A program made the position numbers and the translations under genes. Shown here piece after piece: positions 1,934 through 43,263 of a DNA stretch of 64,000 bases (the stretch's first letter is position 1; every line of letters begins with the position of its first letter). This stretch comes from an uncultured Acidobacteriota bacterium (GTDB taxonomy: Bacteria > Acidobacteriota > Thermoanaerobaculia > UBA5066 > Gp7-AA6): NCBI GenBank assembly GCA_963764715.1, contig CAVXTP010000009.1, positions 1-64,000 on the forward strand, read 5' to 3'. The notes beneath the pieces were generated by a model. That model worked only from the letters and a program-made list of their open reading frames with translations, did no database searches and was not told where the DNA came from.

Positions 1934-2104
1934 GGATGGTTCTCCTTGCGGATGCCTACGAAGCTCCCGCCGCCAAGGTTCTGCCGAGCCCGGATCGCCA
2001 GGAGGAAGGCGTCGAGAGCCAGTGGAGACCCAGGGCCGGCCGCCCCGGACGGTGAGCGACCGGGGCGAGCCGACGCCGAGGTGGGTTTCGGCGGCCGTGA
2101 CGCC

Positions 2105-3278
2105 TCAGGCTCCGACTTTCGGCGCCCGTCGTTCGGCCGGGCTCGTCGGCTGACCGCGAAGCACCCGCTCCACGGTCCTCGGGCCGGCGTCGGCGTGCTC
2201 GAGCGCGGAATGGTCGGTGAGCACCTCGTCGCTCAGATATCGAGGCGAGCCAGATGCGCTCGATGATCGGATATGCCGCGACTATCGGCAGCGCGAGGAT
2301 GGCGCCCGCAACGCCGAAGAGCTCGCCCCCGACGATGAGCGCCGTGAGCACGACCAGGCTCGACAGGCGGAGGCGATTCCCGTAAACGCGGGGGATGATC
2401 ACGTAGTTCTCGAGCACGTGATAGGCCGCATACAGGCCGAGAACGATCAGCGCCGTCCCGGGCGACACGGACAGCGCGATCGCCACGGGCAGCACGGTCG
2501 CGATGATGATGCCGAGCACCGGGATGACGTCACAGAGAGCGGCGACAAGCGCCATCGGCATGGCGGCGGGGACGTGGAGCAGGCTCAACACCGTGAACGC
2601 GAAGAGCCCGAAGAGCGCCGAAGTCAGGAGCTGGCCCTGGACGTAGGCCGTGATGACGCGCGAGACCTCCAGCGTGGTCTCGCCCATGCGGTGCCGGTGC
2701 CGTCGCGGCACGTAGGCGAGCAGCCAGGCATAGGCGCGGCGTCCGTCGACGAGCAGATAGATGACCAGGGCGAGCCCGACGATCGCCGCGGTGACGCCGA
2801 CGACGGCGAGCTGCCCCCAGGCGAGCGGCCGCTTCAGCGACGCGGCCACTTCCGGCGATGACGGCAGCGCGAGCGCCTGGACCACGATCCCGCGGACGAA
2901 GGCGGGCTGGCCGGCCAGCCGCTGCTCGGCGTTCGTCCGGTAGGTCCGATAGTTGTCGACGAGCGTCGAAAGCTGGGCGAAGAGCTCGGGAAGGACGAGC
3001 CAGACCACGGCGGCGCCGCAGGCGACGAACAGACCCGCCACCAGCATCACCGCGACCCCTCGCTTCAGTCCTCGCTTCTCAAGCGCCTCGATGGCCGGGG
3101 CCAGGGCCAGTGCGAGGAGGGTCGCGATGAGGAACAGGAGGATCGCCGAACCGAGCTCCAGCAGAGCCCAGACGAGAGCCGCCGCGATCAAGACCTTGAG
3201 GATCGTCGAGACGGGAACACGCAACTCGACGGACGAGCGCGTCTCGTCCGGGATCACGCTCCGCGGGTTGCCCGCCAC
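2105..3278 (-). CDS. AI-2E family transporter (probable 1-nt frameshift near 2245)
   Basis: Multi-TM protein with YVQGQLL, ENYVIIPRVYG, GGELFGVAGAILALP motifs; alternate frame gives a natural C-terminus ending at 2105. Confidence 0.85.
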
Positions 3279-3386
3279 TCAGTCCATCCCCGTCTTCGCA
3301 TGAGGTTCCCGGACTTCCCTGGACCGGGGGGAACCCACCTGGCGCAACGCGGTCGTCAAGGCGTTCTCGCGAAGGAACCGACGCAT
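3279..3386 (-). pseudogene. DUF6766-like remnant (N- and C-termini fused in frame)
   Basis: MRRFLRENALTT-ALRQVGSPRSREVREPHAKTGMD resembles both ends of DUF6766 membrane proteins with the middle missing. Confidence 0.55.
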
Positions 3387-3506
3387 GACAGGCTCTCGCC
3401 GGGTTTTCATGTGAATGGGTGCCCTTGAATGAAGACCGGCCCCGTCGGGCAGGGGTCCTGATTTCGAACGGCCCTCTCCCGGAGGGAGGGTTCGAAGATC
3501 CCGAAG

Positions 3507-3522
3507 TGCATGCCGTGTGCCA
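3507..3522 (-). promoter_or_regulatory. Sigma54 -24/-12 promoter
   Basis: TGGCACACGGCATGCA on the minus strand, upstream of the DUF6766 remnant and AI-2E gene. Confidence 0.75.
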
Positions 3523-8033: not shown

Positions 8034-8049
8034 CGGCTCTAACATTGCA
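8034..8049 (+). promoter_or_regulatory. Sigma54 -24/-12 promoter
   Basis: CGGCTCTAACATTGCA upstream of the LigD-PE gene. Confidence 0.65.
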
Positions 8050-8075
8050 CCCGCTCGCGCGGGGAGGACCGCGGA

Positions 8076-8846
8076 ATGTCACTCGTCAACTACCGCAAGC
8101 GGCGTCGCTTCCAGGTGACGCCGGAGCCGCGCGGCCGCAGCCCCCGCCCGCGCCGCTCGGGCCTGCGCTACGTGATCCAGAAGCACCGCGCGACGGCGCT
8201 CCACTACGACTTCCGGCTGGAGTGGAAGGGCGTGATGCTCTCCTGGGCCGTCCCGAAGGGACCGTCGCTCGATCCGTCCGTCAAGCGCATGGCGATGCCG
8301 ACGGAGGAGCATCCCATCGAATACAACAAGTTCGAGGGCGTCATCCCCGAGGGCGAGTACGGTGGAGGGACCGTGATGATCTGGGACCGCGGAACCTGGA
8401 CTCCCGAGACCGAGGACGTGGACGACGGGCTGAAGAAGGGGGAGCTGAAGTTCCGGCTGGACGGGGAGAAGCTCCACGGCTCCTGGGTGCTCGTCCGCAC
8501 GCGGCGGCCCGGGGAAAAGCGCCCCGCCTGGCTCCTGATCAAGCACCGCGACGACGGCGCGAGCAAGCGCGACATCGCCGACGAGGAGCCGCGCTCCGTC
8601 GTTTCGCATCGCCTGCTCGTCGAGATCGCGCGGGACGAGGGCGGCAACATGGAGAAGGCGGCCGACGGCGATCCGCCCGCGCTCCTGCGCCGCATGCTGG
8701 AATCGCCGGAGCGCGTCATGCCGGCGTCACGCCGCCGGAAGAAGTCGGTCTGGCACTCGGACCGCGAGCCCGCGCGCGCGAAGAAGAAGAAATCGACGCC
8801 GCTCCGCGCCCGAAAGAAGGCGCCCCGGGCTTCCCGGAGCGCCTGA
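8076..8846 (+). CDS. Stand-alone LigD 3'-phosphoesterase (DNA ligase D N-terminal domain)
   Basis: YVIQKHRATALHYDFRLE..SWAVPKGPSLDP..TEEHP..GEYGGGTVMIWDRG. Confidence 0.95.
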   Translation: MSLVNYRKRRRFQVTPEPRGRSPRPRRSGLRYVIQKHRATALHYDFRLEWKGVMLSWAVPKGPSLDPSVKRMAMPTEEHPIEYNKFEGVIPEGEYGGGTVMIWDRGTWTPETEDVDDGLKKGELKFRLDGEKLHGSWVLVRTRRPGEKRPAWLLIKHRDDGASKRDIADEEPRSVVSHRLLVEIARDEGGNMEKAADGDPPALLRRMLESPERVMPASRRRKKSVWHSDREPARAKKKKSTPLRARKKAPRASRSA

Positions 8847-12843: not shown

Positions 12844-14853
12844 TCAACGCGTCGGGCGGCGCGCGCGGCCCGCGGCTCTGGCTTCGAGCATCTCCTTGAG
12901 GACGAGCAGGAGCTGCGTCACGTTGACCGGTTTCGTCAGGATCTTCTGCACGCCCGACTCCCGGATGCGGCGCGTGTCCTCGTCGGCCGTCACGCCGGTG
13001 AGCGCCACGACGGCCGGCGTGGGGTCTTTGCGGCTCGTCCGCCTCTGCATCCACACGGCGCCGTCGCCGTCCGGCAGCGTCACGTCGAGGAGGACCACGT
13101 CGGGAGCGCTTTCGGCGAGCGCCTCCTCGGCCTCCTTGAGGCTCTCGGCGGTGCGCACGACGTAGCCTTCGGACTCGAGCAGGGCACGCATCCCGTAGCG
13201 CGAGGCCTCGTCGTCCTCGACGACGAGCACGCGGGGCCGGCGGCCGTCGACCAGGGGAAGGGCCGATGACGACACGGGCTGCTCGTCGGCGGCTCCGGGC
13301 GCCGCTCCGGCCACCGGAAGCTCCGGCAGCGTGAACTTCACCGTCGTGCCGTTTGCCTCGCGGCTCTCGAGAATCAAATCGCCTCCCATGAGCTCGACGA
13401 GCTGCTTGGAGATCGACAGGCCGAGGCCGGTCCCGCGCGGCGTTTCGCCGGAGCGCGTCCGGATCTGCTGAAAGGGCTCGAACGCCTTCGCGATGAGGTC
13501 CTGCGGAATGCCGACGCCCGTGTCGCGCACCTCGAACGTCAGGGAGCCCTGGAACGGGCGAGCCGCGAGAACGACTCTCCCGCTCGACGTGTACTTCACG
13601 GCGTTCGAGAGGAGGTTGACCAGGACCCGCGACACCTTCTCGCGATCGAGGCTGGCCGACGCCGGCAGCGCGGAGTCCATCTCCAGCTCGAGCGCGAGCC
13701 CCTTCTCCCGAGCGTGCGGCTCGAGCAGTGCCATGCACTCCTGGAGAAGCTCGGCGATCACGACGCTCTGCGGATGCAGGTCCTGCTGTCCGGCCTCGAG
13801 CTTGGCGAGGTCGAGGATGTTGTCGATCATCTGGCGCAGCGATTCCGCGGCGCCGCGGAGAATCCGGACGTTGCGCGCGCGGCGCTCCGGGCCGCCGTTC
13901 GCGGCCTCCGGGTCCTTCTCGAGCTGGTGCGCCAGGAGGATGATCGTGTTGAGCGGCGTGCGCAGCTCGTGGGAGACGGTCGAGAGGAAGTCCGACTTGA
14001 GGCGGTCGAGCTCCTCGAGCTTGCGGTACGCCTCGGACCGCTCCCGGCCCACGCGGCGCTGGTCGCGGATCGCCCGCCCCACCCGGATGAGCGACCGGGC
14101 GCGGGCCCGCAGCTCGTGGGTCTCGATCGGCTTGCCGATGAAGTCGTCCGCTCCGGCCGCAAACCCCCGCTCCCGGTCGATCGTCCCGGCCGTGACGAGC
14201 AGGATCGGGACGTACTCCGGGGACGAGGCCGAGATCCATTCCGCGAGGTCGTAGCCCGAATCGGCTCCGAGCATGACGTCGATGACGGCCAGGTCGTAGG
14301 GTTCGTCGTTCGCGATCCGCGCCGCGGCCGCCGCGAGCGTCGTGGAGACCGCGACGTCGTGCCCGTCGGCGGCGAGGTCCGTCCGGAGAAGCTCGGCGAC
14401 CTCGGGCTGGTCGTCCACGACGAGCGCCCTTCCGGGCGCGCTGCGGGCGCGGGCGGCGCCGCCGGGGGCCGCGCCCACGCGATCGCGGCGGACGTCCAGG
14501 AACGAGAGCACGCGCGCCGCGAAGGTCGCCTCGTTGATCGGCTTGGGGATGAACCCGTCGCAGCCCGCCGCGAGCGCCCGCTCCCGATCGCCCTGCATGG
14601 CGTGCGCGGTCACGGCCAGGATCGGGATCGCGTTGCAGTCGGGGTCCGCGCGGATCTCGCGCGTGGCCTCCCAGCCCGAGAGGAGCGGGAGCGAGAGGTC
14701 CATGAGGACGAGGTCCGGTTTCGCGCTCCGGACCGTCTCCACCGCGGCCCGTCCGTCGGTCACCGAGCGGACCTCGTGGCCGTCGGCCTCGAGAAGCATC
14801 TGGATGAGGGCCCGGATGTCCGGGGAGTCTTCGGCGATGAGTATGCGCGCCAT
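12844..14853 (-). CDS. Cytoplasmic hybrid kinase REC-REC-HisKA-HATPase-REC
   Basis: Three receiver domains, SHELRTPL, NLLSNAVKYT, GTGLGL. Confidence 0.93.
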   Translation of the reverse strand: MARILIAEDSPDIRALIQMLLEADGHEVRSVTDGRAAVETVRSAKPDLVLMDLSLPLLSGWEATREIRADPDCNAIPILAVTAHAMQGDRERALAAGCDGFIPKPINEATFAARVLSFLDVRRDRVGAAPGGAARARSAPGRALVVDDQPEVAELLRTDLAADGHDVAVSTTLAAAAARIANDEPYDLAVIDVMLGADSGYDLAEWISASSPEYVPILLVTAGTIDRERGFAAGADDFIGKPIETHELRARARSLIRVGRAIRDQRRVGRERSEAYRKLEELDRLKSDFLSTVSHELRTPLNTIILLAHQLEKDPEAANGGPERRARNVRILRGAAESLRQMIDNILDLAKLEAGQQDLHPQSVVIAELLQECMALLEPHAREKGLALELEMDSALPASASLDREKVSRVLVNLLSNAVKYTSSGRVVLAARPFQGSLTFEVRDTGVGIPQDLIAKAFEPFQQIRTRSGETPRGTGLGLSISKQLVELMGGDLILESREANGTTVKFTLPELPVAGAAPGAADEQPVSSSALPLVDGRRPRVLVVEDDEASRYGMRALLESEGYVVRTAESLKEAEEALAESAPDVVLLDVTLPDGDGAVWMQRRTSRKDPTPAVVALTGVTADEDTRRIRESGVQKILTKPVNVTQLLLVLKEMLEARAAGRARRPTR

Positions 14854-14880: not shown

Positions 14881-17745
14881 TCAATCCCGCGCCCGCGCTC
14901 CCACCGAGTGGAGAACGTCGCGCACCAGGCGCGCCATGTCGGCGCCTTTTCGAAGAATACGCTGGGCGGATCCGGCGACGCGGGTCTCCTCCTCGTCGGA
15001 AAGGTCCTTCCCCGTCAGGACGATCACGGGCACCGAGCGCAGCCCCGCGTCCTCCCGCATGCGGTAAAGAACCTCGAAGCCGTCGGGCTCCGGCATCAGG
15101 AGGTCGAGGACGACCGCGGAGGGCCGCTGCCGCTCGAGGGCGGCGAGGGCCTCGGCCCCGTCGCGCGCGGTCTCGACGCGATACCCGGCGGCCGAGAGCT
15201 CGTCCCGGAGAAGGTTCCGGACGTCGGCGTCGTCGTCGACCACGAGGACCCGCGCCTCGGCCGTCAACCCCACGCGGGCCAGGGCCTCGCGCAGGACCGC
15301 GCCGGACACGGGCTTGACGAGGTGATCGACGGCGCCGAGGCCGAACCCGAAGGCCCGGTTCTCGACGACCGAATGCACGATCACCGGAATCGACCGCGTG
15401 TCCGGCGAGCTCTTGAGGGCCCGCAGCGTGGCCCACCCGTCGAGCCGCGGCATCACGACGTCGAGGAGGATCGCGTCGGGCGCCCCGCCGCGCGCCACCG
15501 CGAGGGCCTCCCGTCCGTCCGAGGCCTCGAGGACCGTCAGGCCGTAGGGCTCGAGCTCGAAGCGCAGGAGGCGGCGCGTGCCTTCGTCGTCGTCGACGAC
15601 GAGAACGCGCCGTTCGGCGGCGCCCCGGGGCGCCGCGCGTTCGATCGCGGTCTCGGCCGGGAGCTCGCGGGGGAGCGTGACCGTGAAGGTCGAGCCTTCG
15701 CCCGGCGTGCTCTGCAGCGAGATGGTGCCTCCCAGGAGCTGGGCGATCTTGCGCACGATTGCCAGGCCGAGCCCCGTCCCCCCGTAGCCGTGGTGCGAGC
15801 GGGACTCGCCCTGGCGGAACTCCTCGAAGATCGACTCGTGCTCCTCGGCGGGGATCCCGATCCCGGAATCGGTCACGACGAGGGCCCAGCGCTTTTCGCC
15901 CCGCGGCTCCGCGCGGATCTCGACGAACCCGGTCTCGGTGAACTTCAGCGAGTTTCCGACGAGGTTGCCGAGGATCTGGGTGAGCTTGGGGCCGTCGCCG
16001 ATGATCGTGTCAAGCTCGGGGGACACGGCGGTCTTCAGCGCGAGCCCCTTGCGGCGCGCGGTCTCCGCGAAATCGGCCGCGACCTGGCGGACGAGCTGCT
16101 CCACGGACACCACCTCGCGGCGAATCTCGGCCTTGCCCGACTCGATCCGCGAGATGTCGAGGACGTCGTTGATGAGGCCGAGGAGCAGGCGGGCGTTGCG
16201 CTGGACGCGCTCGAGGCTCTCGCGCTGGGCGTCGTTGAGGGGCCCCTGGCTGCCCCGCAGGAGCGTTCCCGTGAATCCCATGATGACCGTCATCGGCGTG
16301 CGCAGCTCGTGGGAGACGGCGGCGAGGAACCGGTCCTTCAGCGCCGAGGCGCGCTGGAGCTCGCGGGCCGTCCCGGCGATCCGGCTGCGCTGCTCCTCGA
16401 GCAGCTCGTTCTGCTCGGCGAGCCGGCGGGACTGTTCGGCCAGGCGCTCGTTGGCCGACGCGTTGGCGAGGGCCACCGCGAGGCTCGGGGCGATCGAGTG
16501 GAGCGTGTTGCGGGCGCGGTCGGAGAAGGGGCGCACGGCGCCCAGGCCCAGCACGCCGAAGGCCTCGCCGAAATACATCAGGGGCACGTGGAGGCTCTCG
16601 CGCGGAAGGATGCGGCCGTCGAAGAGGTCGACGGTCGGCGTCCCGGGGTCGACCGCCACGTGGATCGTCCGCTGCTCGCGCATGGCGCGGCGCGCCTCCT
16701 CGCGGGCCGCGGGCCCGGATCCTTCGGTGCCCCCGATCGAGACCGCCGGCGCGAGGTCGCCCTTGCCGTCGGCGACGTAGAGGACCGCGCTCGAGGCCCC
16801 CGCGACCTCGACGACCTTGTCGAGCACCCGGGTCCCGAAACCGGCGAGGTCGTTGACGGTCGCCGCCGCGGCCAGCACGGCGTTGACCGCCGTCTCGATG
16901 TCGCGGGCCTCGAGGGCCCGCCCGCGCTCGAGGTACAGCCTCGCGGCCGTGTTGTAGTTGAAGCCGAGCTCCCCGATCTCGTCGTTCGAGGCGTCCGACA
17001 GCGTCGGCGCCGGCCGGCCCAGGGCGAGGTCCTCGAGCGCCCGGGACGCGGCGACGCAGGGCGCGAGGATCCTCCGGTTGAGGTCCGAGAGGAGAAGAAG
17101 CAGGCCGGCGAGGATCAGCGCCGCGAGGACGACGAGGGCCGTCGTCGCGGCGTCCCGGCTACCGCGGAGCTGGAGCTCACCGAAGGCCTGGCCGCGGGCA
17201 AAATCGCGCTCGAGCTCGCCGAGGACGCCCCGCAGGACGTCCCCCGCCGGCACCGCCCGGTTGTCGCGGACCGCGAGGCTTTCCCCGGGCGGCCGGGCGG
17301 CCCGGGCGCCGATCGCCCGCTCGGCGGCCGAGGCGTAGACGTTCTCCGCCGCCTCCGCCCGGCGCAGCTTGCCCGAAGTCCCCTCGGTCAGGGACTGGCG
17401 GCGGATGGCGCCGAGCGAGGTCTTCAGCTCGGTCCGGCTGGCATAGTGCTGCGAGAGGTCGTAGCCCTGCCCCTCCCGCGAATACCGGTCCAGGCTGTCG
17501 GACGCCTCCCGCAGCGAGCCGATCGCGTCCGTGACGCGTTCCCGCAGATCCGTGTAGCGGGCAATCTGGACCGTGGCGTCGTAGAGACCCGTGACGGCGT
17601 TGATCGTGTAGTAGAGCCAGGCGCCGACGACCACGACGCCCAGGGCGGCGTAGATGCGGATCCGGGCCTTGAGAGAATTTCGGGCCGGCCGGCGAGACCC
17701 GGCGGGCCCGCTCGCCGGGGCAGACGGAGCGAAGGGATCTGTCAT
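14881..17745 (-). CDS. Membrane hybrid sensor kinase (TM-HAMP-GAF-HisKA-HATPase-REC-REC)
   Basis: Two TM helices, DEIGELG HAMP, GAF, SHELRTPM, two receivers. Confidence 0.93.
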   Translation of the reverse strand: MTDPFAPSAPASGPAGSRRPARNSLKARIRIYAALGVVVVGAWLYYTINAVTGLYDATVQIARYTDLRERVTDAIGSLREASDSLDRYSREGQGYDLSQHYASRTELKTSLGAIRRQSLTEGTSGKLRRAEAAENVYASAAERAIGARAARPPGESLAVRDNRAVPAGDVLRGVLGELERDFARGQAFGELQLRGSRDAATTALVVLAALILAGLLLLLSDLNRRILAPCVAASRALEDLALGRPAPTLSDASNDEIGELGFNYNTAARLYLERGRALEARDIETAVNAVLAAAATVNDLAGFGTRVLDKVVEVAGASSAVLYVADGKGDLAPAVSIGGTEGSGPAAREEARRAMREQRTIHVAVDPGTPTVDLFDGRILPRESLHVPLMYFGEAFGVLGLGAVRPFSDRARNTLHSIAPSLAVALANASANERLAEQSRRLAEQNELLEEQRSRIAGTARELQRASALKDRFLAAVSHELRTPMTVIMGFTGTLLRGSQGPLNDAQRESLERVQRNARLLLGLINDVLDISRIESGKAEIRREVVSVEQLVRQVAADFAETARRKGLALKTAVSPELDTIIGDGPKLTQILGNLVGNSLKFTETGFVEIRAEPRGEKRWALVVTDSGIGIPAEEHESIFEEFRQGESRSHHGYGGTGLGLAIVRKIAQLLGGTISLQSTPGEGSTFTVTLPRELPAETAIERAAPRGAAERRVLVVDDDEGTRRLLRFELEPYGLTVLEASDGREALAVARGGAPDAILLDVVMPRLDGWATLRALKSSPDTRSIPVIVHSVVENRAFGFGLGAVDHLVKPVSGAVLREALARVGLTAEARVLVVDDDADVRNLLRDELSAAGYRVETARDGAEALAALERQRPSAVVLDLLMPEPDGFEVLYRMREDAGLRSVPVIVLTGKDLSDEEETRVAGSAQRILRKGADMARLVRDVLHSVGARARD

Positions 17746-17765: not shown

Positions 17766-17781
17766 TGCACAAAAGGTGCCT
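17766..17781 (-). promoter_or_regulatory. Sigma54 -24/-12 promoter of the hybrid kinase operon
   Basis: AGGCACCTTTTGTGCA. Confidence 0.75.
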
Positions 17782-17785
17782 GTAA

Positions 17786-18013
17786 ATGACGGAAGTCCCA
17801 GGGAACGGCGGGCCCGACTCGGAGGAGAAGCTGCGCCGGTTTTTTCACGATGTCGCCACGCCGCTGTCCGGGGTGTCGCTGCACCTCGAGCGCGCCGTGC
17901 GGCTGCACGCCCGCGGCGAGGACCCGGCGGACGCGCTGGCGACCGCGCGGCGCGAGCTCGACCGAGCGTTCGATCTCTTCGAACGCGGCCGCGCCGAGAT
18001 GCTCAAGCCATGA
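17786..18013 (+). CDS. Stand-alone HisKA/DHp-like protein (putative phosphotransferase)
   Basis: LRRFFHDVATPLSGVSLHLE H-box; 75 aa; ATGA overlap with the activator gene. Confidence 0.7.
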   Translation: MTEVPGNGGPDSEEKLRRFFHDVATPLSGVSLHLERAVRLHARGEDPADALATARRELDRAFDLFERGRAEMLKP

Positions 18014-19233
18014 AAGTCCTCATCGTCGAAGACGACGTCTCGACCCGGAAGGGCCTCGAGAGCGCGGTGCGTGACATGGGTCACGAGCCCCGGGCCGTCG
18101 GGACGGCCGGCGAGGCCGCGCGCGCCATCGAGGAGTTCTCGCCCGACGTGCTGATGGTCGACGTGCACCTTCCCGACGGCGACGGAATCGAGGTCTTCCG
18201 CGCGGCCCGCGAATCCGCCCCGGAGCGGGACGGCATCGTGATCACCGGTCAGGCCTCCCTCGACAGCGCGGTCGAGGCGCTGCGCGCGGGCGTCTCCGAC
18301 TATCTACTCAAGCCGATCCGTCCAGCGCAGCTCGAGGTCGTGTTCCAGCGCCTCGCCGCGCGGCGCACGCTCGAAAGCGAAGTCGACACCCTCCGCGCCG
18401 AGCTCCAGGAGACGGGCAAGCTCGGAGAGATGATCGGCAAGTCCGCCGCGATGGCCCGCGTGTTCGAAGCCGTCCGGCGCGTGGCGCGCTCCTCGGCGCC
18501 CGTCCTGATCACCGGCCAGAGCGGGAGCGGCAAGGAGGTCGTGGCCCGGACGATCCATCGCCTCTCCCGTCGCGCGTCGGCGCCGTTCGTGGCCTTCAAC
18601 TGCGGGGCGATCTCGCCGACGCTCATCGAGAGCGAGCTCTTCGGGCACGAGCGCGGGTCCTTCACCGGCGCGGACAAGCGCCGGGTGGGTTACTTCGAGG
18701 AGTCCAACGGCGGCACGCTGCTGCTGGACGAAATCACGGAGATGGGCGCGGACCTGCAGGTCAAGCTCCTGCGAGTTCTCGAGGCGAAGACCTTTCGGCG
18801 CGTCGGAGGCGCCCAGGACATCCGCGTCGACCTGCGGATCGTGTCGGCGACCAACCGGGATCCGCTGGAGGCGATCAAGGAGGGCAAGCTCCGCGAGGAC
18901 CTCTACTACCGGTTGAACGTCTTTCCGATCTCGCTTCCGCCCCTGACCGATCGCCGCGAGGACATCGCCCTGCTCGCCGAGCATTTCCGGCGGCACATCG
19001 AGGAGCAGGAGAAGGCGGGCGTGAAGGCCTGGGCGCCGGCGGCGCTGAAGCTGCTCGACGCGTATCCGTGGCCGGGCAACGTGCGCGAGCTCCGCAACGT
19101 GGTGCACCGCGCGTACCTGATGACCGAAGGCGACACGATTCGGCCGGAGACCGTCCAGGAGCTCCTCCCCGCCTCGCCCGCCCGCGCGGAGTCGCCCGAG
19201 CGCCCCGCGCGCCGCGCCGCCCGCCGCCGCTGA
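18010..19233 (+). CDS. Sigma54-dependent response regulator (REC-AAA+) lacking the C-terminal HTH
   Basis: Receiver, [46 protein letters not shown], then a short tail and stop. Confidence 0.93.
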   Translation: MKVLIVEDDVSTRKGLESAVRDMGHEPRAVGTAGEAARAIEEFSPDVLMVDVHLPDGDGIEVFRAARESAPERDGIVITGQASLDSAVEALRAGVSDYLLKPIRPAQLEVVFQRLAARRTLESEVDTLRAELQETGKLGEMIGKSAAMARVFEAVRRVARSSAPVLITGQSGSGKEVVARTIHRLSRRASAPFVAFNCGAISPTLIESELFGHERGSFTGADKRRVGYFEESNGGTLLLDEITEMGADLQVKLLRVLEAKTFRRVGGAQDIRVDLRIVSATNRDPLEAIKEGKLREDLYYRLNVFPISLPPLTDRREDIALLAEHFRRHIEEQEKAGVKAWAPAALKLLDAYPWPGNVRELRNVVHRAYLMTEGDTIRPETVQELLPASPARAESPERPARRAARRR

Positions 19234-19237
19234 CGGC

Positions 19238-19253
19238 TGGCACGGGATTCGCT
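19238..19253 (+). promoter_or_regulatory. Sigma54 -24/-12 promoter
   Basis: TGGCACGGGATTCGCT. Confidence 0.75.
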
Positions 19254-19301
19254 TTGAAGGAGCGCGGGGCCGCGCATGCCCCGGAAAGGAAGTCAAACAC
19301 C

Positions 19302-19451
19302 ATGCTCTGGACCATCTTCGTCATCCTTCTCGTGCTGTGGCTGCTCGGCCTGGTTTCCGGCTACACCCTCGGGGGCTTCGTTCACATCCTGCTCGTCATC
19401 GCGGTTATCGTTCTGATCATCAACCTCATCCAGGGTCGTAAGGTCGTTTGA
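19302..19451 (+). CDS. lmo0937/DUF5670 family small membrane protein
   Basis: MLWTIFVILLVLWLLGLVSGYTLGGFVHILLVIAVIVLIINLIQGRKVV. Confidence 0.92.
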   Translation: MLWTIFVILLVLWLLGLVSGYTLGGFVHILLVIAVIVLIINLIQGRKVV

Positions 19452-19639: not shown

Positions 19640-20464
19640 TCAGGCGGCGCCGGCGCGGCGCCGTCCGCCGCGTGCGTTCCGGACGCGGGGCTGCTCGAGG
19701 CTGCGCTTCAGGGCGTCCATCAGGTCGACGACGTTGCCACCCGCGGCCTTCTTCTTCTCCTCCGCAGGCGCGGCGAGCGTGAAGCGTTTCCGTGAGGCGA
19801 GGAGCTTCTTGAGCGACCGCCGGTACTCGTTGGGGTGCTCGGCCGGGTCCCATCCCTCGCCGCTCATCTGGTCGATCAGCAGGCGGGCCATCCTGACCTC
19901 GCCCGACTTCTTCGGGTTCGTCGGGACGGCGACCTTCTGGGGGTCCCGGATCTCCTCGTACGGGCGAAGGGTCTCGAGGCCGATCACGCGGGGCCCCGGG
20001 AGAAGCGCGGCGAGCGTGGCCTTCCTGCGGAGGCCGAGGCGCACGACCCCGATGCGCCGGGCGTCGAGGAGCGCGTCGCGGAGAACCCCGTAGGCCTTCT
20101 CGCCGCCCTTGCGCGGCGCGAGGTAGTAGGGATGGTCGAAGCTCAGCGGATTCAGGGCGCCGAGCTCGACGAACTGGAGGACCTCGATCTCGTCGGTCGC
20201 TCCGGACTCGCGGCCCGCCTTCTCGATGTCTTCCTTCTCGACGACGGAGTACTCGTCGTCATCCACCTCGAACCCCCGCACGACGTCGTCGCCCGAGACC
20301 TCGACGTCCTCCTTGCTGCAGAACTTCTTGTAGACGATCGGCGCGTGGTCCTTCCGGTGGAGGAGCCGGAACGAGACGCGCTCGGAGGACTCGACCGCCG
20401 AGTGGAGCGAGACGGGAATCGAGATCAGGCCGAACGTGACGTGGCCGTTCCAGATCGGTCGCAT
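19640..20464 (-). CDS. ku: Non-homologous end joining protein Ku
   Basis: MRPIWNGHVTFGLISIPV..FDHPYYLAP..NVVDLMDALKRSL. Confidence 0.95.
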   Translation of the reverse strand: MRPIWNGHVTFGLISIPVSLHSAVESSERVSFRLLHRKDHAPIVYKKFCSKEDVEVSGDDVVRGFEVDDDEYSVVEKEDIEKAGRESGATDEIEVLQFVELGALNPLSFDHPYYLAPRKGGEKAYGVLRDALLDARRIGVVRLGLRRKATLAALLPGPRVIGLETLRPYEEIRDPQKVAVPTNPKKSGEVRMARLLIDQMSGEGWDPAEHPNEYRRSLKKLLASRKRFTLAAPAEEKKKAAGGNVVDLMDALKRSLEQPRVRNARGGRRRAGAA

Positions 20465-20477
20465 GGCGGGGCCGGGC

Positions 20478-20636
20478 TCAGACCGCGGCGCAATCGGGGT
20501 GGCCGCAGGGGCACTTGCGCTGCGAGGAGCCCGCGTTGGGCAGCGCCGCCTCGGCGCAGCGCTCGCTGCAGTAGTTCTTGCCCTGGCGCTCGACCGGGGC
20601 GTCGCCGCAGCGGCACGAGGAATGGGAACAGCTCAT
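20478..20636 (-). CDS. Bacterial metallothionein
   Basis: CSHSSCRC..YCSERC..CPCGHPDC, 52 aa, GGAGG RBS. Confidence 0.85.
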   Translation of the reverse strand: MSCSHSSCRCGDAPVERQGKNYCSERCAEAALPNAGSSQRKCPCGHPDCAAV

Positions 20637-20662
20637 CGAAGCACCTCCACTTCCCGATTCGG

Positions 20663-20678
20663 AGCAAATCCGCTGCCA
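20663..20678 (-). promoter_or_regulatory. Sigma54 -24/-12 promoter of the metallothionein-ku unit
   Basis: TGGCAGCGGATTTGCT. Confidence 0.8.
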
Positions 20679-39470: not shown

Positions 39471-39677
39471 GGGTCAGGTCTTCACTTTTTCGAAGGCCCC
39501 GGAAGGTTCGGCTGACGCCTCGGACGGAACCGGGGCCCGAAAAATGAAGACCTGACCCCCTACGGAAGTCGTTCCAGCCTTCACTTTTTCGAAGGCCCCG
39601 GAAGGTTCGGCTGACGCCTCGGACGGAACCGGGGCCCGAAAAATGAAGACCTGACCCCCTACGGAAGTCGTTCCAGC
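39470..39677. repeat. GGGGTCAGGTC-type palindromic REP/MITE with a 99-bp tandem duplication
   Basis: IRs GGGGTCAGGTCTTCA.TTTTTCG / CGAAAAATGAAGACCTGACCCC; 39480-39578 is repeated at 39579-39677. Confidence 0.9.
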
Positions 39678-40134
39678 TTCAAGGTCGTCCCCGCCGCGAC
39701 GCCCTCCTTCGCCGCCATTCCGCCGGCGATCTCGAGCACCAGCCGGACCTTGCCGTCGGGACCGTAGGTCGGGCAGGGGTCGGCCTTGCACGGGGGCGTG
39801 TTCGCCGAGACGTAGACGACCCGGCCCGACGCGTCCATCCAGATCATGTCGAGCGGGATCATCGTGTTCTTCATCCAGAAGTGGTGCGGCGCGTCCTCGG
39901 GGAACACGAAGAGCATCCCGGTGCGGTCCGGCAGGTTCTCGCGGAACATCAGGCCCTGGGCCTGGTCCTCGGGCGTCAGGGCGAGCTCGAGGGAGTAGCG
40001 CGCGCCGGACGGCAGGACGGCGGCCGGGCCGGCGGCGGCCGTGGGTGTCGCGGCCGGCGGGGCCGAGGAGCCCGGCGATGCGCCGCAGGCCGCCGCCAGG
40101 ACCGAGATGGCCAGCATCGCCGGGAGGCGTCGGA

Positions 40135-40138
<4 letters not shown>
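39659..40138 (-). CDS. DUF192 family lipoprotein
   Basis: AAAC lipobox; [27 protein letters not shown]. Confidence 0.93.
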
Positions 40139-41564
<1,426 letters not shown>

Positions 41565-41568
<4 letters not shown>

Positions 41569-43263
41569 TGGACGGCCTCCGGGGAGGCCGCGGCGCGGCC
41601 GGCGGCGGCCTGGGTCGGCAGGTTTCTCGGCAGGAGTATCGTCACGGTCGTCCCTTCACCCGGCTTCGAGTCCACGTCGATCGCGCCCCCGTGGTCCTCG
41701 ACGATGCGCCGGACGATCGCCATGCCGAGCCCGGTCCCGCCGTCGAAGGCCGTCGAGAAGGGCGTGAAGACGCGGGCGATCTCTTCCTCGCTCATGCCCC
41801 GGCCGGTGTCTCGGAACTTGATGCTATACCAGGCGCCGTCCTCGAAGCCCTCGACGGCGAGCGTGCCGCCGTCGGGCATCGCGCGCACCGCGTTCTTCGC
41901 GACGTTGTAGATGATCTGCCGGATCTGGTCGCGGTCTCCCGCCAGCAGCGACGACGGCGGGACGACGTCGAGCCGGATCGCGTGCGCGTCGGAGACCTCG
42001 TCGGACATCCGGAAGAGCTCGAGGACCTCCTGGAGGTTGACGGCCACGTCGAAGACGGCGACGCGGCGCTCCTGCGGCCGGACGAACCGAAGGAACTCCT
42101 CGAGGATGCGCGAGAGGCGGTTCGACTCTGAGACGATGATCTCCATCAGCCGCCGCTCGGCGGAGCCGACCGAGAGCTCGTGCGAGAGGACCTGGACCGA
42201 GCCCGAGATCGAGGCCAGCGGGTTGCGGATCTCGTGGGCGATTCCGGCCGCGAGCTCGCCGACCGCGGCGAGCTGCTCGTTGAAGCGGGCCTGCCGCTCG
42301 AGCTTCTTCACCTCGGTCAGGTCCTGGAACACGATGAGGGCGCCGTCCTCGCCGGACGGGTCCTTGAGCGCGCGCACCGAGTAGCCGAGGACGCGCCGGG
42401 AATCCTCGCGCGCGATCTCGATCTCGGCGCGGTAGCCCTCCCGGCCCCGCGTCCGGCGCCGGATCTCGTCCCACTCGCTCGGGAGGTTGAGCCCGATCTC
42501 CGAGAGCGGGCGCCCGACGGCCCGCGCCGGAGGCGATGCCGAGGATGTCGCCGCCGGCCTGGTTGAGGAACACGACACGTTCGCGCGAGTCCGCCGTCAC
42601 GAGGCCGGAGGACATCGACGCGATGACGTTGGCGTAGAGGGTCTGGATGCGGGAAAGGGCCTTCTGCCGGCTCTCGAGCTCCTCCCGCGCGCCGCGCAGC
42701 TTCTCCGAGAGGTACGAGACCATGAAGGCCACGCCGTAGAACCCGACGATCGTGATCGCCAGGTTGTAGCCGATGCGCTCGGGGCCCCAGTGCCCGGCGG
42801 CCGCCATGCGCGGGCGCGGCAGGACTTCGTACGCGGTCAGCTCGACCATGAGGCCGTGGGCGAGGGCGGCGACGGAGGCGATGACGACGGCGCCGGTGCG
42901 GTAGAGGAGGAAGGCCGCCGCGCCGATGACGACGAGGTAGAGGAAGGTGAAGACCGAGGTCGGCCCTCCCGAGGAGTAGACCAGCATGCAGACGAGGCCG
43001 AGGTCGCCCAGGATCTGCAGGTACGCCTCGGGCCGCGGGGGCAGGAGGCGGCCGAGCGTCCAGTGGAAGAGCGAGAGCACGAAGGCCGCGGCGCACAGGC
43101 CGTAGAGGTAGGAGATGTCGACGTCCTCGGTCCGCGCGTCGGCGAGCAGCGAGGCCGGGGCGCTGCCGGCCTGGACCAGGAACGCGGACAGCAGGATCAG
43201 GAAGAGGACCGCGACCCGGATCGCGGTCAGCCAGAGCAGCGAGCGCCGGAGAGAGTCGTCCAT
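41565..43263 (-). CDS. pilS: PilS-like sensor kinase (frameshift near 42525)
   Basis: Multi-TM N-terminus, [16 protein letters not shown]; follows pilC. Confidence 0.85.

Follow-up and report, generated by a model that had tools for sequence, protein, structure and literature searches.

A sigma-54 activator lacking a DNA-binding domain within a cluster of stress-type promoters in an uncultured acidobacterium

The locus

The subject of this work is a gene for a sigma-54 activator that has no DNA-binding domain, found in a stretch of 64,000 nucleotides (the window; G+C 70.8%) from an uncultured Acidobacteriota bacterium of the class Thermoanaerobaculia (GTDB lineage UBA5066; Gp7-AA6). The window comprises positions 1 to 64,000 of contig CAVXTP010000009.1, here called C9, in assembly GCA_963764715.1. 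The gene (18010-19233, forward strand) begins with ATG, ends with TGA at 19231-19233, and encodes 407 amino acids. Just before it is a gene for a small protein with a histidine box (His-box), and divergent from this pair run two genes for hybrid histidine kinases. Just after it come a sigma-54-type promoter and a gene for a small membrane protein of family DUF5670. All this lies within a 34-kb cluster of predicted sigma-54 promoters. An earlier reading of the window, made from the letters alone (the sequence-only reading), had proposed that the protein acts on many such promoters from solution, as a global switch.

The activator protein

The protein was identified by Pfam and NCBIfam profiles, by the location of its motifs, and through its orthologues. 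Pfam places a receiver domain (Response_reg, PF00072, 8.6e-21) at residues 3-109, a sigma-54-specific AAA+ domain (Sigma54_activat, PF00158, 2e-69) at residues 141-307, and AAA_lid_14 at residues 314-393. It finds no helix-turn-helix (HTH) domain of family HTH_8 in the 407 residues, even at E≤1, as the sequence-only reading had expected. Only 14 residues follow the lid match, or 20 if the low-complexity tail at 388-407 is counted in full.

What is present is complete. The receiver pocket is in place (acidic EDD at 7-9, D51, T79, and K101), and D51, T79, and K101 are invariant in 26 aligned relatives. The AAA+ domain has Walker A (GQSGSGKE, 169-176), Walker B (LLLDEI, 237-242), an arginine finger region (FRRVGG, 262-267), and sensor II (NVRELRN, 357-363). 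Its loop is GSFTGA (216-221), a variant named alongside GAFTGA in a passage of PMC11999139 and found also in two HTH-bearing activators of the same genome. The receiver, Walker motifs, loop, and sensor II had all been called intact before, and each could be located. The earlier count of about 35 residues after sensor II was right about the short end and wrong about the number, which is 44 (from 363 to 407), an immaterial difference.

Profiles of related proteins end their matches at the same place. Those for NtrC, AtoC, NtrX, LuxO, and ZraR, some 440-470 positions long, are matched from their first position to about position 380-392 and no further, the HTH part of every profile being left unmatched. 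All the NCBIfam scores are under the curated cut-offs, with NtrC and AtoC ranking top. Over the receiver and AAA+ domain, the best matches are to group 1 proteins of the NtrC1/NtrC4/AtoC/LuxO type (PDB 1NY5, 4L4U, 3DZD, and 5EP0; E 8e-95 to 5e-87), across residues 1 to about 380.

Could an HTH be hidden by a frameshift? A six-frame search of the whole genome for HTH_8 gave 14 places, none of them near C9:19 kb, so no frameshifted HTH is concealed there. Nor is there room for one, because a promoter begins 4 nt past the stop and the DUF5670 gene is close behind. The sequence-only reading had argued the same from the promoter, and on this point it was right.

Reviews place proteins with a receiver and an AAA+ domain but no DNA-binding domain in type Ic, or group 5, and give Helicobacter pylori FlgR and Chlamydia CtcC as examples (in passages of PMC3162934 and PMC7175178). 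CtcC is likewise described as lacking the domain in part of PMC7482065, so that what had been said earlier of the missing domain in these two proteins agrees with the sources. The protein described here has the features of that group: a receiver with a phospho-acceptor aspartate, an AAA+ domain with all its motifs, and no DNA-binding domain at the C-terminus. It lacks the C-terminal Fis-type HTH (PF02954) of group 1, the NtrC/AtoC/ZraR type. A FleT-like protein would consist of the AAA+ domain alone, both end domains being absent (as passages of PMC3162934 and PMC7175178 say of FleT), and here the receiver is complete.

Conservation and loss of the HTH

Sixty-one genomes of the class were sampled, eight of them from the family of the source genome, f1 (seven without the unpublished genome G004). 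Strong activator matches are found in every one of the 61, and full-length matches at 72-100% identity only in the eight f1 genomes. The f1 orthologues have open reading frames (ORFs) of 406-424 amino acids and end at the same point in 8/8 genomes (7/7 without G004). None of the three that were run through Pfam has HTH_8 at E≤0.01. Within the genus, the ratio of nonsynonymous to synonymous substitution (dN/dS) for the whole gene is 0.07-0.19. The database gives the same picture on a larger scale. The 120 best of 8000 scored relatives are 74-91% identical and 402-451 amino acids long, except for one of 551, and the few with named entries are from "Thermoanaerobaculia bacterium". In precomputed Pfam lists, all 120 have the receiver, AAA+, and lid families, and none of these 120 has PF02954. 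Thus the check that had been suggested, that orthologues end at the same place, came out as hoped, and the worry that close orthologues might all carry an HTH is not borne out: the HTH is found in orthologues from the sister families f3 and f2 and from family f5.

In those families the HTH is plain enough. The orthologue in G060 (family f3), 59% identical and within the same operon, has 456 amino acids and an HTH_8 at 412-453 (30.2 bits, against a cut-off of 22). HTH_8 is present also in the f2 orthologues (460-468 amino acids) and in relatives from f5 (about 458). A maximum-likelihood tree, rooted only at its midpoint, was built from the best match in each of 24 genomes and nine of the 12 other activators of the source genome; the three set aside were one truncated at a contig end and two whose reading frames were problematic. 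The 24 best matches form one clade (100/100), apart from the paralogues. Within it, the HTH-less f1 clade (100/99) is sister to f3 plus f2 (98/90), with f5 and f13 outside, and the surrounding clades all bear the HTH. In f1, f3, and f2 alike, a small His-box gene precedes the activator and overlaps its start. The nesting of the HTH-less clade within HTH-bearing ones, together with this synteny, implies a single derived loss, and the simplest history would put it at the base of family f1. Judged from these comparisons, the gene encodes a genuine, selected HTH-less sigma-54 activator of the FlgR/CtcC (group 5) architecture.

In place of the HTH is a basic, low-complexity tail, recognized by comparing relatives: residues 388-407 (19171-19230, forward strand), ending in RRAARRR. 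All relatives have such a stretch of Ala, Pro, Ser, Arg, and Lys after the lid. In the 116 of 121 proteins that have the landmark WPGNVREL, its median length is 28 amino acids and its median net charge +7, with a minimum of +4. By a strict count, 64 of the 121 proteins have at least four Lys or Arg among their last six residues, and nearly all of the remaining 57 end in ...ARKR, ...RKK, ...RKRG, or something similar. The clearest exceptions are the 551-aa protein, with an odd Arg-rich extension, and one protein ending in ...YRHRS. Relatives of 440-451 amino acids have their extra length at the N-terminus, not the C-terminus. MAFFT aligns the tail end, ...[DE]KK..A..RKR, under the GD[KR][KR]K.AA that begins the HTH of the outgroup, an alignment of low-complexity sequence and so unreliable. 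The tail may be a vestige of the lost HTH, and it may have some non-specific affinity for DNA. A basic tail and the HTH can coexist in this orthologue group: a 500-aa relative at L011 (G022, family f13) combines an HTH region with a long tail rich in Lys (...KKAAKRKSGRKKAASKRSTGRKTKKKKA).

A putative phosphorelay

The 75-aa protein encoded before the activator (17786-18013, forward strand), whose stop overlaps the activator's start as ATGA, is a kinase stub with a His-box (DHp) domain and nothing more. Its match to HisKA is weak (19.8 bits, below the cut-off). The His-box reads FFHDVATPL, and its histidine, H21, is invariant in seven sequences. The ORF ends 56-60 residues past the box in all four genomes of the genus. 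In the other four f1 genera and in G060, it extends 196-211 residues and takes in an ATP-binding domain (HATPase_c, 30.3 bits in G036 and 23.4 bits in G060). The position of the stub is thus occupied in other genera and sister families by a DHp+CA protein of 190-236 amino acids, a mini-kinase, and the f2 gene at that position is a homologue (hhalign 95.7%, E 9e-9). It follows that the source genus deleted the catalytic half. In the four pairs, out of six, for which it could be computed, dN/dS of the stub is 0.07-0.29, rough values given that dS exceeds 1. By this measure the stub is under purifying selection.

I take the stub to be akin to Spo0B and ChpT, kinase-derived helical hairpins with a phosphorylatable histidine that do not autophosphorylate. 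It too would be a DHp hairpin with a conserved histidine and no working ATP-binding domain, and it too is found beside hybrid kinases with receiver domains. It differs from them in having no remnant of a catalytic domain whatever, and in that other genera keep the full DHp+CA protein. It is probably a phosphotransfer protein.

The two hybrid kinases, divergent from the activator pair, are conserved in family f1. The nearer (14881-17745, reverse strand) has the domains GAF-HisKA-HATPase-REC-REC, with its ATG start (MTDPF) placed by conservation; the other (12844-14853, reverse strand) has three receiver domains. The natural reading of the gene order, and of the overlap between stop and start, is a relay that would run from a receiver of the hybrid kinases to the His-box protein and from there to D51 of the activator.

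Promoters flanking the operon

A sigma-54-type promoter, TGGCACGGGATTCGCT (19238-19253, forward strand), lies 49 nt before the DUF5670 gene (19302-19451, forward strand; PF18919, 6.5e-16), which encodes a membrane protein of 49 amino acids and is a likely direct target of the activator. A promoter of the type TGGCA(C/T)G-N4-TTCGCT is kept before DUF5670 in 8/8 f1 genomes. In the source genus, the DNA upstream of it is the variable, tail-coding end of the activator gene. In other f1 genera, the DUF5670 gene is 1.4 kb away and its promoter is 20-60 nt from a divergent gene. Between promoter and gene (19254-19301, forward strand), all four genomes of the genus keep a G+C-rich hairpin (GGGGC...GCCCC) with CCGGAAAGGA after it, which could form a structured leader or halt transcripts that read through from the activator gene.

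On the other side, a sigma-54-like promoter, AGGCACCTTTTGTGCA (17767-17782, reverse strand), precedes the start codon of the nearer hybrid kinase by about 22 nt. Of the eight f1 genomes and G060, which were checked for it, it is in the same place in seven of the eight and was not found in G056, where the locus is rearranged, nor in G060. If this predicted promoter is real, it suggests that the activator boosts its own kinases, a positive feedback. Read on the plus strand, the site is almost a palindrome (TGCAC-N5-GTGCC), which makes it similar to a binding site of the NtrC type as well.

The promoter island

These two promoters are not isolated. GG-N10-GC sites were scored for their fit to TGGCACG-N4-TTGCW, with a match required at six or more of the eight further positions, and were classed with simple codon-usage gene calls. 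The genome has 146 such sites in 4.36 Mb, 66 of them intergenic and no more than 300 nt upstream of a gene. Eighteen of the 66 fall within the 34 kb of C9:3507-36759, where 0.51 would be expected (Poisson P about 6e-22). All the highest-scoring 34-kb stretches of the genome are here, and no other stretch comes close. Shuffling with a looser pattern gave 31 ± 5 expected matches in the window, against the 47 observed.

The genes behind the island sites are of the general-stress type. They include the LigD 3'-phosphoesterase (8034-8846, forward strand) and Ku (19640-20678, reverse strand), the latter behind a 52-aa ORF resembling metallothionein; Fe/Mn superoxide dismutase; DUF1328; BON; an iron permease with DUF2231; DUF892 with a PNPOx-like protein; hemerythrin; DUF6496; a lipoprotein; and a hydrophilic protein rich in Gly and Gln. 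Several of the promoters are back-to-back, within 25 nt of a neighboring gene, or directly past a neighbor's stop codon. The promoter and ribosome-binding site of the Ku operon are conserved in G032 and G024. Elsewhere in the genome, sites precede genes for pilins, TonB-type receptors, ferritin, redoxin, and others, and some adjoin HTH-bearing activators.

An AI-2E transporter gene with the same sigma-54-like site 229 nt upstream of it (TGGCACACGGCATGCA) is found both at positions 1956-3522 of the window and at C20:42437-43853 of G000, either through a repeat or because contig ends overlap. On C20, further sigma-54-like sites precede genes for ferritin and DUF748, and so the island may continue there.

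The island and the activator

Does the cluster belong to the activator? In the three other members of the genus, the 20 kb surrounding the gene contain 9-10 sites, and to this extent the co-occurrence that the sequence-only reading looked for is found. The HTH-bearing orthologues of f2 also sit amid sites: eight in 40 kb (G052), eight in 20 kb (G044), and six in 13 kb (G019). These sites precede genes for CsbD-like, Transgly_assoc, ferritin-like DUF2383, DUF5670, and DUF748 proteins and a hybrid kinase. The link between activator and island is therefore older than the HTH loss and independent of it. That the orthologue group and a sigma-54 stress regulon go together across at least two families supports the role of the activator in that regulon. 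Among eight loci in other genera homologous to BON and DUF892, a site scoring at least 6 is within 150 nt upstream in five, there is a weak and distant one in another, and none in two; a DUF892 homologue was found in only one of five genomes searched with a single query, which made it of little help in profiling the regulon. Three metatranscriptome runs and one run labeled as cDNA gave short matches only, to motifs common to activators, with no bearing on expression.

To look for a shared upstream word, k-mers (k=7-9) from the 225 nt that precede each of the 18 island promoters were compared with 3000 background regions, and no convincing one emerged. The best, ACCGTCC (8/18), was rejected as an upstream activating sequence: it is not enriched in the window (0.28/kb, against 0.21 genome-wide), it has no fixed distance from the promoter, and it is partly counted twice in divergent pairs. 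When the DNA preceding the DUF2231 and Ku operons is aligned among G000, G024, and G056, conservation is confined to the -24/-12 elements, the ribosome-binding site, and the beginnings of the coding sequences. The HTH-bearing f2 clusters, meant as a positive control, yielded no clear motif either; TTTCAAG/CTTGAAA is found three times each in G052 and G044 and not in G019. In G044 (L094, 11346-11390), the stop codon of the HTH-bearing orthologue is followed at once by a perfect 14-nt inverted repeat (CTTGAAAACCGTAC ... GTACGGTTTTCAAG), and some 50 nt further on by a sigma-54-like site. The repeat may serve as a terminator or be where the orthologue binds.

Other activators in the genome

The source genome has a single rpoN and 13 sigma-54 activators. 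Eleven have an adjacent HTH_8 match, one is cut by a contig end, and only the 407-aa protein is shown to lack the domain. Its closest paralogue in the genome is 46% identical to it. The one other activator gene on the contig (39.7-41.5 kb) is PilR-like and lies beside a PilS-like gene and genes of the type II secretion type. The sequence-only reading had credited this protein with an HTH, and indeed an HTH_8 is found at C9:40204-40326, albeit in a gene that is split. The gene (receiver, AAA+, HTH; 39659-41515, reverse strand) is distributed over two frames, with the break near 40985-40998, and the long ORF continues into a gene for DUF192. The PilS-like gene is likewise spread over two frames that overlap, 41565-42578 and 41824-43263. 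These splits are either frameshift mutations or assembly errors. At C6:509906-510812 (reverse strand) of G000, an activator has its AAA+ and HTH_8 matches in different open frames, possibly an assembly frameshift.

Comparison with known systems

FlgR and CtcC are the closest in kind: each has a receiver and a sigma-54 AAA+ domain with no C-terminal DNA-binding domain, and each is under the control of a cognate kinase (according to passages of PMC7175178, PMC3162934, and PMC7482065). Going by those descriptions, the present case is set apart by its 13 activators, its acidobacterial clade, its conserved basic tail, and its sister-family orthologues that have the HTH. The regulon differs as well, being flagella or development there and, by its looks, general stress here.

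What can such a protein do without an enhancer? H. pylori FlgR is said, in the title of a paper from 2004, to be enhancer-independent. DctD250, an AAA+ fragment of Sinorhizobium DctD, needs no enhancers in Salmonella to activate promoters that belong to different cognate activators; at glnKamtB, the only promoter so compared, the cognate NtrC was stronger by about 10-fold (passages of PMC3844500). That fragment is engineered, lacks a receiver, and is constitutive, whereas the 407-aa activator is natural and keeps its receiver, hence control by phosphorylation. FleT of Cereibacter (Rhodobacter) sphaeroides is a natural activator that likewise lacks a DNA-binding domain, and several other activators are encoded in the same genome; FleT is inactive alone and works in mixed FleQ/FleT rings (part of PMC11999139). 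It differs from the 407-aa activator, which has a full receiver and a gene of its own for a putative phosphodonor.

A proposal and its rivals

I propose that a group 5 activator ends a phosphorelay and switches on a stress regulon without a specific enhancer, a proposal I rate at slightly better than even (about 0.55). The ancestor of f1 would have lost its Fis-type HTH and kept a short tail rich in Lys and Arg. Phosphate from the two divergent hybrid kinases would reach D51 by way of the small His-box protein whose gene precedes that of the activator. Once phosphorylated, the activator would assemble into the usual AAA+ ring and remodel the sigma-54 holoenzyme at promoters, with no need to bind a specific upstream enhancer. 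The surest targets would be the two promoters that flank its own operon, that of the kinase operon (the positive feedback) and that of the DUF5670 gene. A wider regulon is likely, taking in the surrounding sigma-54 promoters before genes of the general-stress and dormancy type. The protein is likely to be the island's activator, and its architecture and the known precedents make it probable that it needs no specific enhancer. Action throughout the genome from solution, the global switch of the sequence-only reading, goes a step further, one that we can only infer.

Several considerations weigh against the proposal. The promoter calls come from a simple consensus score and crude gene calls. The four other f1 genera have only 1-3 sites within 20 kb of the activator gene, where the genome average is 0.67 per 20 kb (unfiltered counts), and so the expected co-occurrence is thin in the rest of f1: the dense island is a feature of the source genus and f2, not of HTH loss. 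The control clusters of f2 gave no clear motif, so the method may be blind to enhancers, which makes the negative result for the island a weak one. Twelve other activators could serve the island promoters from enhancers inside coding DNA. Finally, lack of a DNA-binding domain can mean that an activator does nothing on its own, as the case of FleT shows (a passage of PMC11999139).

Consider first the gene itself. Other genes of the assembly do look frameshifted (the PilR-like, the PilS-like, and the activator on C6), and one might suppose that this one is likewise truncated, decaying, or an artefact. But the same end in 8/8 f1 genomes and in the 120 best database relatives, the intact catalytic motifs, and the low dN/dS within the genus rule that out for all practical purposes. 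The supposition that the Lys/Arg-rich tail itself binds DNA, non-specifically or in the manner of an AT-hook, so that the activator works from DNA and not from solution, is less improbable, though I doubt it. The basic tails of bacterial histone-like proteins, rich in Lys, Ala, and Pro, bind DNA non-specifically, and the tail here is kept in all relatives examined, always with a net positive charge and usually with one of the same few endings. On the other hand, its sequence and its length (15-37 amino acids) vary freely, Pfam recognizes no fold or motif in it, and MAFFT aligns some of it with the place where the lost HTH would begin, which would make it perhaps a mere vestige, as far as that alignment can be trusted. 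A further idea builds on the tail and is something of a long shot: that it clings to DNA non-specifically and so keeps newly made activator on the nucleoid close to its own gene, that selection has packed the target promoters around that gene, and that proximity thereby replaces the enhancer.

The remaining alternatives concern how far the activator reaches and whether it acts alone. It may be a narrow, local regulator that serves only the promoters of the kinase operon and DUF5670, the rest being left to HTH-bearing activators acting through enhancers in coding DNA. Only those two promoters are conserved beside the gene across the HTH-less family, and the sparse sites of the other f1 genera fit as well. 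This seems rather unlikely, however: no other activator gene was found within the 34-kb cluster, the same orthologue group is amid stress clusters in f2, and a protein without a DNA-binding domain has no obvious means of restricting itself to two promoters, the AAA+ domain of DctD having proved promiscuous (as reported in part of PMC3844500). Or the activator may be a co-activator in the style of FleT, inactive alone, that enters mixed rings with an HTH-bearing activator and alters its partner's choice of promoter or its output. The genome offers 12 possible partners, two of them with the GSFTGA loop variant. But FleT has nothing like the complete receiver (D51/T79/K101) and the upstream His-box partner that the activator keeps, the closest paralogue of the activator in its own genome is only 46% identical, and in none of the loci examined is the gene for a partner linked. 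I therefore hold a co-activator to be unlikely.

Significance

The protein is a new example of a known but rare type of HTH-less activator, and it is new for the phylum Acidobacteriota. A search of the full-text literature on Acidobacteria, sigma-54 enhancer binding, and stress, with subscription journals outside its scope, found nothing on this clade.

Most characterization of activators without a DNA-binding domain comes from bacteria that have only one activator and hence no problem of specificity. Here one coexists with twelve others and a single sigma-54, and how cross-activation is avoided or tolerated becomes an interesting question. Were proximity indeed to replace the enhancer, specificity among the 13 activators would be set by the location of promoters rather than by a recognition sequence, and the orthologues of sister families, with and without the HTH, would make a natural before-and-after pair. 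Even apart from that idea, the sister families have the HTH on the orthologue, the same operon, and the same kind of stress cluster, and so offer a natural comparison of enhancer-dependent with enhancer-independent control over one regulon. The island, with its superoxide dismutase, Ku, LigD, BON, DUF892, and small membrane proteins, is a sign that Acidobacteriota may run a response of the general-stress or dormancy type by way of sigma-54.

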